Positions 289 through 14,279 of a stretch of 64,000 nucleotides of DNA are shown in pieces. The stretch is from Amphiura filiformis. Lineage: Eukaryota. Both the position numbers and the translations under genes were made by a program. How positions within the stretch are numbered: the stretch's first letter is position 1; the number at the start of each line of letters is the position of its first letter. Location: the NCBI RefSeq assembly GCF_039555335.1, contig NC_092646.1, positions 36,859,911 through 36,923,910 on the forward strand, given 5' to 3'. The notes below the pieces were generated by a model. That model made no database searches and had not been told where the DNA came from. It saw nothing but the letters and a program-made list of their open reading frames with translations.

Positions 289-447
289 CGTTCTGGGGTG
301 AGTGGGGACCATGGGGTTCGTGCAGTTTAGCGTGTGGTGGTGGGTATAAGAACAGATACAGGACCTGCTACTACGACGGAGAAGCACATGAAAGACAATG
401 TCCGGGATCAGGTCACGAGCAAGCAAACTGCAACACTCAAGCATGCC
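289..447 (+). CDS. Gene 1 exon A: TSP1 repeat (FWGEWGPWGSCSLACGGGYKNRYRTCYYDGEAHERQCPGSGHEQANCNTQAC). Phase 1-1 exon, 159 nt
   Basis: Acceptor ..catgttag|CG and donor GC|gtaagt. W-x-x-W-x-x-W plus CS-x-x-CGGG plus R-x-R-x-C pattern typical of thrombospondin type 1 repeats. Identical exon length and start (tag|CGTTCTGGGG) to paralogous exon at 10488. Confidence 0.7.
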
Positions 448-570
448 GTAAGTATTAATATAATCATGGAAACTGTTCGTCTCAGATTTTATGAAATCAT
501 ACCGTACAATATAATGCAGCATAAAGAATCAGGTTGATTAATGATAATTTTATTATCTTACTTCTTACAG

Positions 571-750
571 TTCAGCGGCGTGTATGGGGATCATGGGGAG
601 AATGGGGAGCTTGTAAAGATTATCCGATTGGCGGAATGTTACTCCAACCCGCTCCCCCAATATGCAGGAAATATAGACGCAGAATGTGTTTCGGGGATAC
701 TGGCTCTTGCCCGGGATCAGATCAAGAAGGCCAATACTGCAGCTGCTTCT
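571..750 (+). CDS. Gene 1 exon B: second TSP1-like repeat (QRRVWGSWGEWGACKDYPIGGMLLQPAPPICRKYRRRMCFGDTGSCPGSDQEGQYCSCF). Phase 1-1, 180 nt
   Basis: Acceptor cttcttacag|TT, donor T|gtaatt. Phase compatible with exon A (C+TT=Leu). W-rich/Cys-rich TSP1-like spacing. Confidence 0.6.
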
Positions 751-1862
751 GTAATTTATCTTTTTTCTCTTAATATCTCTGGGATCTCTGTGTTTCTCTC
801 ACGTTACCAAACCCGTTATAATTATATTATACAGTATTGCATTAAAACTAATGTGTAAAAGGAAACACCCGCCTTCTATTTGGTTTCCGATATATAATAT
901 GCGGAACCATTTGGGTGCCATTTTTGAAAGCATCCAAAAGCCGATACCTTTTGGATACCTAACAATTTTTGTGTAAAGGAGTGACCCAAAAGGTAAAGTC
1001 ACCCATAAGGCTCCCACTTAGCCACGTGACTAATTCCTTCACATAAACATGATTAAGTAAATCTCAAAATAAAGTTCGAATTGTGGGCTATTATTTTTGT
1101 GAATATTACGGCATAATGTGAGTTACCGAGATTGAGCCCCATTAAGTATTTCTGATTTAATTGTTCGTTGGTTCCGCCTTCCGCCTCCGAAATTTGAGCA
1201 GAGTGTATTACACACCTCATCCGGACAAACAAATAGACAAATATTGCTTATTGTTAAATTGGGCTACTTTATTCGATTTATTAGTCCACCCGAGTTCAAA
1301 ATTGATTTTTTGTATTTCCGGAATATTCCCAACAATTGAGAATTTAAGTCATTTTAGCTAAATGTTAAAAAAATTCATAATTAAAAAAGGAAACGAGATT
1401 TTTGATTAATTCCTTTTGATATGAAATGGCCAAGAGTTGGGTTTCTAGAAAGGCGGTCAATCTGCTTAGTGGCTAAACGTGCTGAGTCCACTCATTTTTT
1501 TAAACAAAAGATGTAATAAAAATACGAAGTTTAAGTATTAAAAATAAACCAATTATTTTGGTTCCTTATGACCTTAACCCACAAGCAATATTAACAAAAT
1601 CAACCAAACTAAAATTGCCATAGACTTGCAAACGCTTTTGGTTGGGAGGTTGTGACAATCCTCAATCCTCTTCGGCCTAGAATTATCTAACCAATTTTTG
1701 AACGTTTCCTGAAAAAGGTCTTTTGGAAAACTGAAGTACAGTCGCGGGAACTGCACATTAGTCAATCGGGGAATCAGGGCCTCTTTTTATCGTTTTGCAT
1801 ATATTTTCTTAGAATATGGTATCCTTTTTCACTTTTATTGGGTTTTTTATTTATTTTGCCAG

Positions 1863-2506
1863 CATCATCATGTTTTGCTTCCGACTCTATGGTTCGCGTG
1901 AAACTGCTCACCAACGACGATACGAAAATAGAACTTAAACGAATGGATCAACTGAAAGTAGGCGATAACGTTGAAAGCTTTGACCCGGAAACCAACTCGG
2001 TAGCCTTTTCTGAAGTGTACTTCATATGTCATGAAGATCAAACTAGCAACTCCTCTCGCTTGATAAAGTTAGTGTTCGGTTTTGAGGATGAGAAAGAGTT
2101 ATCTCTACGTTTGTATTCGAAACATTTGGTCTACGCATGTAGTATTAAGGAGAAAGATGAACCAAATGTGGATTCCTGTCGTTATCCACCGATGAATCCA
2201 GTAACCGCTGAGAGTGTGAAAATCGGTGATATCTTGTGGCTGAGAAATTCTGCCGGTAAATTCTCGCCAAAACCGGTGATCGACATCGGTGAGTCCTGGA
2301 ATGGCATTCGACATCCAATGACTCTCAACCATTACATTGTTGTGGATGATGTTTTGGCGTCTGCTCATGTGTTTGATGAAGGGTTATACAGGCAGGTCAC
2401 GGCTCCGTTGAGGTTTCTGTATAGAATCAGCCCATCTATTACCGACACTAGCCTTGTGAAGAAGCTGGTCCAAATGTGGGAGCATGTTGAAGAAAATTTC
2501 TTGTAA
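1863..2506 (+). CDS. Gene 1 terminal exon: Hedgehog-type Hint (Hog) domain, CFASDSMVRV...APLRFLY...ENFL*. Stop TAA at 2504-2506
   Basis: Acceptor ttttattttgccag|CA, phase 1, compatible with exon B (T+CA=Ser). Strong similarity to Hh C-terminal autoprocessing domain: CF start, VKxGDxV, ..HLVYA (TXXH region), HPMTLNHYIVVDDVLASAHVFDEGLYRQVTAPLRFLY vs Hh [34 protein letters not shown]. Confidence 0.8.
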
Positions 2507-11840: not shown

Positions 11841-11900
11841 TAAAGGGGTCAAACATGATTATAACAACTTTGTGATGACTGGATATGTTTGAACTTATAG

Positions 11901-12041
11901 GTGAGTCATGGGGATCGTGGTCCGAGTGTAGCAACTGTGACAGCAGTGGATGGGGTAACCAATACAGATATAGAATGTGCTGTGACGTTACCGGTCGTAC
12001 ATCATTCCAAGATCGAGCGTTACGCCGGTGCAGTGGTTGTC
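11901..12041 (+). CDS. Gene 2 exon D: TSP1-like repeat (ESWGSWSECSNCDSSGWGNQYRYRMCCDVTGRTSFQDRALRRCSGC). Phase 1-1, 141 nt
   Basis: Acceptor gaacttatag|GT, donor C|gtaagt. T+GT=Cys joins exon C in frame. Confidence 0.6.
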
Positions 12042-13626
12042 GTAAGTGTAACCAATCTTTTTCTCTTTCATATTCCAATCTCATATAATGTGTATACTAC
12101 TGTAAATTTGCAAAGAATTTGGCACCACTTTTTCAATTACTTTATTATTTAAATATATATCCATTATTTTAACAAAAATCAAGTTGCATTATTATTACTG
12201 GGATCAAAAGTAATTTTGCGTTATCGTATAAATTTTATTCTTTTGTTTTTAGTTAGCTGAATTAGTCAATGTCGTTTACTTTCGAACCCATAGCATACAA
12301 ACATGTTGGTGCAAATTTAACAAAAACACTTAAGAGTCGATCTACGCTGACCGCTGACCTGCATTCCGAAGTTTTATCATATCTCTCCAAATCACAGCAT
12401 TCAGGTTCTAATATGCAGCTGATAGAAAACATTTCAAGACACTAAAAACAGCATTGATGTTTCAAATTGTACTTAAAATTCTGATTTTGATACACTTTTT
12501 TGCTTAACTCAAGCGCCTCAAACCCCATTGCAATTAAACTGCATTCTTTTCAGTTCTTTGAAAGAAATCCTTATCAAATCCATATACTATACTTCTCACA
12601 GCATTAATATTATTATACTAGTTTAGTTGGAGGACCTCGGAAAACAACTTCTAATCAACGTGTCTACTAGATCGGAACACATGCGTGGGAAAGTAATACT
12701 TGCGTTTAAAAAATCAGAAAGTGTCTCTAGGGTCCAACAGGGGGAGGGTAAAATTTCATATAGCACGGTTGCTCAGACTTTGTCAAAATCTACGCATATT
12801 TAGAAAAAGTATTGATCTATCTGCGACATATCATTCTTGAGTTGTATAGCAGACAGGTTAATTGGGAGGGGTGATCAGTTTTTTTTGATCACATGGGAGT
12901 CAAAACTAAGAGTGCTGGTTCTTGACCAAATCTGAGCAATTATGAAATTTCAACCCTGTGGACCCTTAGGGACACTATTTGATTTTTAAAACAATTTATA
13001 TTTTTCTACGCATGTTTTCTGATCTCAAAACGTATATAAGAAGATGATTTCCGAGGACGCACGCTAGGCCCTTCTTCTAACTAAATTATTAGTATTGAGA
13101 AAACACTAAAGCTCTTTGAAAATTGGGCACTGTGGGTCAATGTCACCTTAAAAGCTAAAGGTCCGCTGATTTTGAAATTGAATTTTCGGGGGCAAATAAG
13201 CCCTCTGTCACCTAAAATGTGTAATAACTCAGTAAATAGTCAGTAATGACTTCATCAACGAGTGCTTTTTGACTTTGAGTGCTATCTACTTCTTCTCTCT
13301 CAGCGTCACCCACACACAGCAGAAGGGGATGGGTCACCTGATCTGGCATTACATGACTAATTTTTGTACGCTCGCTTTCGTCAGAAAATCTTAAAAGCAG
13401 TCGCGGACATTCCACATTATTTAGTCTGGGGAATCCTGACCGTCCCACTTCCAGTCAACCCCTAATACCATTACCATAAGTTCTAAATCCTGCGCACGCC
13501 ATTGATAATGACCAAATCGGTTTAAAAGTTCAAATTGGCAGTAATGAAATGTTATCTTTTATGTCTCGTTTTGCATCCATTTCTCTTATACTTTTTCTTT
13601 TCTTGTTTTTTATTATATTTTACCAG

Positions 13627-14279
13627 CGTCATGTTTTGCGTCCGACTCTATGGTTCGCGTGAAACTACTCACCAAAGATGACACGAAAATAGAACGTAAA
13701 CGAATGGATCAACTGAAAGTAGGAGATCACGTTGAAAGCTTTGACCCGGAAACCAACTCGGTAGCATTTTCTGAAGTGTACTTCATATCTCATGAAGATG
13801 AAACCAGCAACTCCTCTCGCTTGATAAAGTTAGTGTTCGGATTCGAGGATGAGAAAGAGCTATCTCTTCGTCTGCATTCGAAGCATTTGGTCTACGCGTG
13901 CAGTATTGAGGAGAAAGCTGAACCAAATGTAGCACCCATCACTGATTCCTGTCGGTATCCACCGATGAATCCAGTAACCGCTGGGAGCGTGAAAATAGGC
14001 GATATCGTGTGGCTGAGAAATTCTGCCGGTGAATTCTCGCCAAAACCGGTGATCGACATCGGTGAGTCCTGGAATGGCATTCGACATCCAATGACTCTTA
14101 ACCATTACATCGTTGTAGATGATGTTTTGGCGTCTGTTCATATGTATGATGAAAGTCTATACAGGCAGGTCACGGCTCCGTTGAGGTTTCTGTATGTCAT
14201 CAGCCCGTATATTACCGACACAAGCATTGTTAAGAAGCTGGTCCAAATGTGGGATAATGTTGAAGAAAAATTCTTGTAA
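13627..14279 (+). CDS. Gene 2 terminal exon: Hint (Hog) domain, about 87 percent identical to 1863-2506. Stop at 14277-14279
   Basis: Acceptor tattttaccag|CG, phase 1, compatible with exon D (C+CG=Pro). Same Hint motifs as gene 1. Confidence 0.8.

Follow-up and report, generated by a model that had tools for sequence, protein, structure and literature searches.

A window of 64,000 nucleotides (nt) on contig NC_092646.1 of the brittle star Amphiura filiformis was analysed. It is AT-rich eukaryotic DNA (35-41% GC) and carries two neighbouring genes on the + strand, here gene 1 and gene 2, each ending in an exon for a Hedgehog-type Hint (Hog) domain. Gene 2 specifies, almost certainly, a product in which a signal peptide is followed by an AID/APOBEC-like deaminase (AAD), an RQKR site, one thrombospondin type-1 repeat (TSR), one TSR-like module and the Hog domain. 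This AAD-TSR-Hog order is a new domain architecture assembled from domains of known kinds, and the database proteins that have it are named only "uncharacterized". An earlier annotation made from the letters of the window (the sequence-only reading) had described both loci as TSR exons joined to a Hint exon; its gene 2 lacked the deaminase exon and was incomplete.

The six exons of that reading were bounded by GT..AG throughout, and every junction fell in phase 1. The intron phases were mutually compatible, as it had proposed: T+CA at its exon B gives Ser and C+CG at its exon D gives Pro. Splicing of gene 1 yielded an open reading frame (ORF) of 326 codons, unbroken to the TAA at 2504-2506, and splicing of the three original exons of gene 2 an ORF of 316 codons, unbroken to the TAA at 14277-14279. 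The check for further 5′ exons between 2.5 and 10.4 kb, which the same reading had recommended, resulted in the gene 2 exon at 7463-8203. The 5′ exon or exons of gene 1 fall left of the window, and gene 1 is readable from its TSR exon A onward. The features of both genes, with the evidence for each, are the following:

289-447 (+): gene 1 TSR exon A, phase 1-1, six Cys, FWGEWGPWGSCSLACGGG...NTQAC (splice sites, ORF, Pfam TSP_1)
571-750 (+): gene 1 exon B, phase 1-1, degenerate and TSR-like, VWGSWGEWGAC...RKYRRRMC... (ORF; TSP_1 below threshold)
1863-2506 (+): gene 1 terminal exon, Hog (Hint followed by a short helical stretch at the C-terminus), S|CFASDS through ...EENFL (Pfam Hint)
2507-3211 (+): gene 1 3′ flank or untranslated region (UTR), aligning with 14280-15646 at ~73-79% identity (blastn)
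7463-8203 (+): gene 2 first coding exon, signal peptide, AID/APOBEC-like deaminase (HSE...SPCTEC), RQKR and phase-1 donor G|GTAAGA (tblastn, Pfam, profile, AlphaFold2/Foldseek)
10488-10646 (+): gene 2 TSR exon A, phase 1-1; in RefSeq protein P0053 it directly follows the AAD exon, ...CDLP-A-FWGTW (TSP_1, 26.0 bits)
11901-12041 (+): gene 2 exon B, degenerate and TSR-like, ESWGSWSEC...YRYRMC..., present in P0053 (TSP_1, 10.4 bits)
13627-14279 (+): gene 2 terminal exon, Hog, stop TAA at 14277-14279 (Pfam Hint; 88% amino acid identity to gene 1)
14280-15646 (+): gene 2 3′ flank or UTR, paralogous to the gene 1 flank (blastn)

The four joined exons of gene 2 are 100% identical to RefSeq XP_072019147.1 (P0053; 500 aa, "uncharacterized protein"), in which the junctions lie exactly as placed here, including 8203|10488. 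Using tblastn, the N-terminal 200 residues of P0007, a transcript-derived relative of 473 aa, were located at window 7504-8193 (+), between the two loci, and this exon was matched by P0007 and by P0019-P0026 with E-values of 1e-11 to 1e-29. The exon ends in ...RQKRNANDNSIICDLP, followed by the phase-1 donor G|GTAAGA at 8203/8204. Across the 8203|10488 junction, G+CG gives Ala and the frame continues into exon A as Ala-Phe-Trp-Gly.

In a relative, the parts are transcribed together. The Logan contig L001 (2296 nt) comprises a 5′ UTR, an unbroken 473-codon ORF and a 3′ UTR of ~800 nt; signal peptide, AAD, TSR and Hint are encoded by this ORF in one mRNA-like molecule. In a second contig, L002, retrieved from ENA and representing a close relative at 3x coverage, the four exons recur in unchanged order, with identical phases at the TSR and Hint junctions and a linker nearly identical to that of gene 2 (RKRNANDCPIICELP). 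In L002, the deaminase exon shifts frame within 3540-3620, just upstream of the conserved RKRNANDCPIICELP|GTAAGA end, by either sequencing error or parallel decay.

If the genes were instead TSR-Hog only, 7463-8203 would be a separate upstream gene, and what Hog releases would be a secreted TSR module for adhesion or signalling. Within the window gene 1 indeed shows TSR and Hog only, the A. filiformis paralogues P0003 and P0015 join EGF and TSR to Hog without an AAD, and the AAD exon is positioned 2.3 kb from exon A and cut off from its own start codon. However, the phase-1 donor at 8203 reads into exon A and RefSeq makes the same join, L001 holds AAD, TSR and Hint contiguously in a single ORF, L002 retains their order, and the AAD exon is followed by neither an in-frame stop nor an alternative terminal exon. 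A division into two genes is considered very improbable, and the four-exon model of gene 2 was retained. As a separate observation, the final ~19 codons of the deaminase exon recur in degenerate form (NLQNFFFGNVRSFSVSRTK versus NSQNVFFGNVRRFCQPRQK) at 8562-8618 (+), ~350 nt into the next intron, in what looks like the relic of a partial duplication.

The deaminase exon was characterized at the level of motif, profile and predicted fold. Its catalytic motifs, THSE-(29 residues)-SPCTEC, are intact. A profile built from the exon and P0007 was searched against 1.84 billion representatives, resulting in 27 proteins that share an H[AS]E...PCxxC core and, in most cases, a hydrophobic leader. Following alignment of all 28 members, the E, P, C and C of the HxE / PCxxC signature were invariant and the H nearly so. 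At E<0.01, the commonest Pfam match among these members was SNAD4 (28/28), with NAD1 (26/28) and APOBEC_N (25/28) also represented, and P0019, P0022, P0025 and P0032 surpass the curated Pfam gathering scores for AAD models. Against the PDB, the 28-member profile retrieved APOBEC3G (A3G) first (E 5e-13 for two-domain chains; ~5e-6 for single A3G/A3F domains), followed by A3F, A3C, A3H and AID; the tRNA adenosine deaminase ADAT2 (2e-3) and dCMP deaminase (0.15) matched less well by orders of magnitude. Matches of the AAD profile to Erv1/ALR were put down to a short CxxC stretch, the sole region matched, and discarded.

An AlphaFold2 model based on an alignment of two sequences was poor, with a predicted local distance difference test score (pLDDT) of 52. 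The 28-sequence alignment was used instead, giving a pLDDT of 82 and a predicted TM-score (pTM) of 0.79. Comparison of this model with the PDB by Foldseek placed A3G, A3C, A3F, A3B, A3H and APOBEC1 on top (probability ~1.0, E ~1e-4), with TM-scores of 0.35-0.5 that are modest because of the long inserts and the leader in the model. Against the assignment counts that the window exon on its own stays below the Pfam thresholds for APOBEC_N (23.4 bits, threshold 25) and SNAD4 (20.7 bits, threshold 27), as it does for NAD1 and APOBEC2; every match is within the AID/APOBEC clan. A word-indexed search with the AAD exon gave no match, an artefact, as P0053 sits under the 90% cluster representative P0001, which has no AAD; with the 28-sequence alignment the same kind of search found only 4 proteins. 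From the profile matches and the modelled fold, we conclude that 7463-8203 encodes a predicted divergent, secreted AID/APOBEC-like deaminase with its catalytic motifs intact.

The window deaminase is followed by a dibasic, furin-type RQKR site, and an R-x-K/R-R site with a Cys shortly past the deaminase is common to many family members, the window gene included. This combination of deaminase domain and furin-type site suggests a secreted enzymatic effector, of immune or toxin type, rather than an adhesion or signalling ligand. The sequence-only reading had proposed a new secreted adhesion or signalling family; adhesion or signalling now fits less well, since the largest N-terminal part of the product is an AID/APOBEC-like deaminase followed by RQKR.

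The terminal exons, taken by the sequence-only reading as unmistakable Hint domains of the Hedgehog family, were confirmed as such: Pfam Hint (PF01079) scored 70.9 bits in gene 1 and 71.6 bits in gene 2, at a gathering score of 29.7 and an E-value of 1e-19. A family profile of the Hog domain retrieved Drosophila HhC from the PDB (6TYY, E 7e-5, and 1AT0); phmmer with a single Hog domain against the same database gave only a chance lipase match. Past Hint, ~45 residues follow in which the Hh-like APLRFLY segment is kept. No HH_signal domain (Hedge, HhN) was detected by Pfam, and the N-terminal parts are AAD and TSR. The catalytic Cys1 is kept in both genes (S|CFASDS), aligned with the Drosophila residue, and is found in 9/10 of the ophiuroid-type sequences whose alignment extends to the junction, the exception being Ala in P0013. 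His72 is kept as well, the His of [Y/H]SKH being invariant in 14 family members and aligned with H72.

The Hedgehog active site consists of C1, D46, T69, H72 and C143 (PMC12054796). Two replacements, one ambiguous position and one missing motif weigh against autoprocessing in the Hedgehog manner. Gene 1 has Tyr and gene 2 His in place of Thr69 (H/Y/T/D/Q across the family), and Cys143 is replaced by Ala and Val, respectively, in VLAS[A/V]H. The Asp46 position is ambiguous: HMMER aligned a family-invariant His (FISHED) and MAFFT a six-residue insert, C/S-H-E-D-x-T. The G-x-HWY motif of the sterol region is absent from the short C-terminal region. In Hedgehog, D46 is the general base that activates cholesterol, and C143 takes part in a branched thioester intermediate. 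The D46H mutant is reported to autoprocess still; C143 is reported as required, and C143A or C143D abolishes processing (PMC12054796). The replacements in the window Hog lead to an alternative in which it has lost autoprocessing and is kept at the C-terminus for structure or binding, the N-terminal parts being freed by furin-type cleavage at RQKR only. Such a role would agree with the conservation of R-x-K/R-R across the family and with a Hint score well under that of canonical relatives (71 versus ~180 bits). A purely structural domain would, however, not be expected to hold Cys1 in nine of ten sequences and His72 without variation. Moreover, an Hh-like Cys143 is missing from other Hint domains that do cleave, such as bacterial intein-like domains and nematode Hogs. 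We regard an inactive Hog as a serious but rather unlikely alternative; judged from its retained residues, self-cleavage of the window Hog is plausible, by a chemistry that is uncertain.

The TSR part was evaluated with Pfam TSP_1 (PF00090, gathering score 21.6). Exon A scored 35.1 bits in gene 1 and 26.0 bits in gene 2 and contains six Cys in each, with WGEWGPW in the former and WGTWEAW in the latter. Exon B alone reached 14.7 bits (E 0.035) in gene 1 and 10.4 bits (E 0.8) in gene 2, both below threshold, and resembles a TSR at the motif level only (WGSW, RxR, Cys). Of the two TSP1 exons assigned to each gene by the sequence-only reading, exon A thus stands and exon B is only TSR-like; the profile searches it had called for on the conceptual proteins passed the gathering scores for exon A and Hint in both genes. 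Properdin, the spondins and ADAMTS proteins share with the window genes the six-Cys TSR with WxxWxxW and RxR, encoded by a symmetrical phase 1-1 exon. In contrast to those proteins, the window genes have one or two repeats, the second degenerate, and in the window gene the TSRs link an enzyme to a Hog domain.

The two loci were compared by blastn. Alignments were restricted to 1820-3211 versus 13587-15646, representing the Hint exon and 3′ flank (~78% identity; alignable 3′ flank ~1.3 kb), and to exon A (73.5%). Introns and exon B gave no blastn alignment between the loci, and the intron lengths of gene 1 and gene 2 are 123 versus 1254 nt and 1112 versus 1585 nt. Duplication of the whole unit, introns and 3′ UTR included, as had been claimed, therefore holds for the Hint exon, the 3′ flank and exon A, but is not detectable for exon B and the introns. 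At the protein level the Hint exons share 88% identity, with a ratio of nonsynonymous to synonymous substitution (dN/dS) of 0.20 at a synonymous divergence (dS) of 0.24. For exon A, dS was 0.71 and dN/dS 0.44; exon B was saturated. These ratios point to purifying selection after the duplication, and the low dS of Hint next to the high dS of exons A and B suggests that the Hog, which is under constraint, was homogenised or duplicated later than the fast-diverging cargo exons.

Several observations speak against intact reading frames in gene 2 and its relatives. The ATG at 7463 opens a leader (MAHAILCSFLF...) whose frame differs by 1 nt from that of the remaining exon, so that RefSeq P0053 starts at an internal Met of the AAD exon and has no signal peptide. 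The L002 copy is likewise frameshifted, and in RefSeq P0001 TSR exon A is in the wrong frame. Adding one base within 7466-7505 (T-runs at 7486-7495) restores a 24-residue leader colinear with its homologues. A frame-repairing intron in the leader was rejected: the only GT..AG candidate in 7496-7540 measures 45 nt, a multiple of three. The frame defect may be a homopolymer assembly error or a very recent disabling mutation, which would make gene 2 a young pseudogene; outside the leader, gene 2 is intact. Long-read assemblies err in T-runs.

Applied to the array as a whole, the latter explanation would mean recent pseudogenes now without function, the intact-looking ORFs of which reflect their youth. 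Besides the frame errors in gene 2, P0001 and L002, it can draw on P0002 and P0004, annotated as Hint-only fragments without Cys1, and on gene 1, for which an exact protein match was sought in the protein collection and not found. Yet no stop interrupts the ~550 codons of the four gene 2 exons or the 326 codons of gene 1, and dN/dS values of 0.20 (Hint) and 0.44 (exon A) indicate purifying selection after duplication. The catalytic motifs of AAD and Hog are kept, and a transcript-like contig exists in a relative; the indel falls in a stretch with T-runs and L002 has low coverage. Loss of function throughout the array is judged unlikely, and gene 2 is treated below as a gene for a secreted precursor.

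Beyond the window, four proteins (P0026, P0027, P0031 and P0037; loci L003 and L004) combine a signal peptide and an AAD with a canonical Hog, without TSR. Their Hint domains score 170-182 bits and carry GCFP, FLDR (D46), T/SxxH (T/S69, H72), SCY (C143), FAPLR and G-x-HWY. P0026 and P0037 are each encoded by one uninterrupted ORF on their own contig, and all four AAD-Hog relatives have the R-x-K/R-R...C linker in common with the window gene. P0032 is a secreted AAD with a galectin domain and no Hog. PF00090 and PF01079 occur together in the A. filiformis RefSeq proteins P0003, P0015 and P0053 and in the transcript-derived P0007. The combination of TSP1 and Hint, which had been put forward as an unrecognised architecture, is without a description in the searchable literature but already present, unnamed, in public protein sets. 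P0003 consists of an uncharacterised 250-aa region, EGF, TSR and Hog; P0015 of EGF, two TSRs and Hog. In P0017, also from A. filiformis, an AIG1/GIMAP-like GTPase is linked through a Lys/Glu-rich stretch to Hog, without an obvious hydrophobic leader. The presence of the same Hog type on EGF/TSR and AIG1 domains points to active shuffling of the phase-1 Hint exon.

At least three further paralogues, P0001, P0002 and P0004, were located on the same 60-Mb chromosome. P0002 and P0004 are models of the Hint exon only, start at an internal Met past Cys1 and are labelled "warthog protein 4-like" by NCBI; RefSeq annotation of all three looks faulty. The two window genes probably belong to a tandem array of Hedgehog-related (Hog) genes whose expansion is specific to brittle stars, a view to which we incline without much certainty. 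The simplest history would start from an older AAD-Hog gene, between the two exons of which phase 1-1 TSR exons were later inserted in the ophiuroid lineage.

In the 14.3-64 kb part of the window, tblastn and profile searches revealed no further AAD, TSR or Hint exons. Three overlapping open frames of 99-114 codons are located at 11180-11830 (-), in intron 2 of gene 2; two of the three were searched against Pfam without a match, and the frames are possibly a decayed mobile element. Interspersed repeats are shared between the long intron of gene 2 and other parts of the window, 8645-9033 with 22717-23083 (86% identity) and 9663-9922 with 42239-42497 (inverted, 93% identity). Window 43800-46700 (-) contains a decayed non-LTR retrotransposon with frameshift-broken ORFs matching RVT_1 (66 bits) and Exo_endo_phos_2 (32 bits). 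At 52084-53049 (-), a very proline-rich open frame of 322 codons was found, with repeated APPPPPPGAYS units and an acidic DDDMGFGLFDDDDD motif that resembles ribosomal P protein tails (Ribosomal_60s, 28.5 bits); it is probably an exon of an unrelated gene.

The window genes resemble Hedgehog and other Hog proteins (Hh, nematode warthog, groundhog and quahog, choanoflagellate Hoglet and lophotrochozoan Lophohog) in having a secreted N-terminal cargo followed by a C-terminal Hog that starts with Cys-Phe. Shared features are also the terminal Hint exon, the expansion in a single lineage and the interchangeable N-terminal domains (PMC2362128; PMC9695228). They differ in their cargo, in gene 2 an AID/APOBEC-like deaminase with TSRs instead of Hedge, Wart, Ground or Qua, and in their derived Hog, with its short C-terminal region and without Cys143, Thr69 and HWY. 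The N-domain of the lophotrochozoan Lophohog has been described only as "unique", and Lophohog may be the same family as the canonical AAD-Hog proteins. No thrombospondin/TSP or deaminase partner for Hog is given by Burglin 2008 (PMC2362128).

The deaminase can be compared with the secreted AADs known as SNADs, with which its family shares an N-terminal leader in most members, the HxE / PCxxC deaminase fold, lineage-specific expansion and rapid divergence (PMC5889660). SNAD4, NAD1 and APOBEC_N are the best Pfam matches of the window family. Unlike SNADs, the window deaminase sits in a multidomain precursor with TSR and Hog. SNADs were described only from vertebrates and sponges by Krishnan 2018, echinoderm AADs being taken as classical and non-secreted, and no Hint, Hedgehog or TSP1 fusion is mentioned there (PMC5889660). 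Liu 2018 describes no secreted or Hint-linked AADs (PMC5956068). In full-text literature, combinations of deaminase, APOBEC or SNAD, or of thrombospondin, with Hint, Hog or hedgehog returned nothing relevant. In bacterial polymorphic toxins, too, one secreted chain unites a deaminase effector with an autoproteolytic HINT, following the same logic of self-release (PMC3239186; PMC3482391). Their HINT, however, is N-terminal to a C-terminal toxin, whereas in the window gene the deaminase comes first and the Hog last, the arrangement of Hedgehog, and the window gene is eukaryotic, with spliceosomal introns and animal TSR exons.

We lean towards reading gene 2 as encoding a secretory pro-protein, processed as follows. 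The precursor would enter the endoplasmic reticulum (ER) co-translationally, and Hog would release itself at the Ser|Cys-Phe-Ala junction through an N-to-S acyl shift. The AAD-TSR fragment would be left free or, as in Hedgehog, carry an esterified lipid or sterol; its TSRs, and the adduct if there is one, might then keep it on membranes, matrix or foreign surfaces. Following cleavage of RQKR by a proprotein convertase, the deaminase would be freed and may act on viral or parasite nucleic acids in the lumen, in endosomes or outside the cell, in defence or conflict. Taken singly, cleavage, adduct, deaminase activity and biological role are each given an even or slightly better than even chance. 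A luminal or extracellular site of action would fit with Krishnan et al., who suggested the ER or extracellular space as the place where secreted AADs work (PMC5889660).

The family as a whole allows a wider and more tentative proposal. The classic mutators of DNA and RNA in immunity, the AID/APOBEC enzymes, work inside the cell; secreted AADs were predicted from sequence and their function is not understood. Hedgehog-type autoprocessing is, to our knowledge, the only covalent attachment of protein to cholesterol in cells, and the Hog cargoes that we know of are signalling or cuticle-matrix domains. It is conceivable, though we hold it less likely than the pro-protein reading, that animals have an unrecognised class of proteins in which the C-terminus of a secreted AID/APOBEC-like deaminase, in brittle stars of a deaminase with TSR, is esterified by Hog with cholesterol or a different lipid. 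Tethered to membranes outside the cell or in endosomes, such a nucleic-acid deaminase would be used in antiviral or antiparasite defence, and the canonical AAD-Hog proteins, perhaps identical to Lophohog, would be its clearest case because every Hedgehog active-site residue and HWY are kept in them.

For the biology of these families, gene 2 would extend secreted AADs to echinoderms, and the fusion offers a concrete, testable route for the processing, tethering and delivery of a secreted deaminase. Hog domains would have been shuffled via phase-1 exons onto immune-type domains, AAD and TSR here and an AIG1 GTPase in P0017. The window Hog, having lost Cys143 and Thr69 and perhaps carrying His at position 46, may serve as a natural test of which Hedgehog residues are dispensable.

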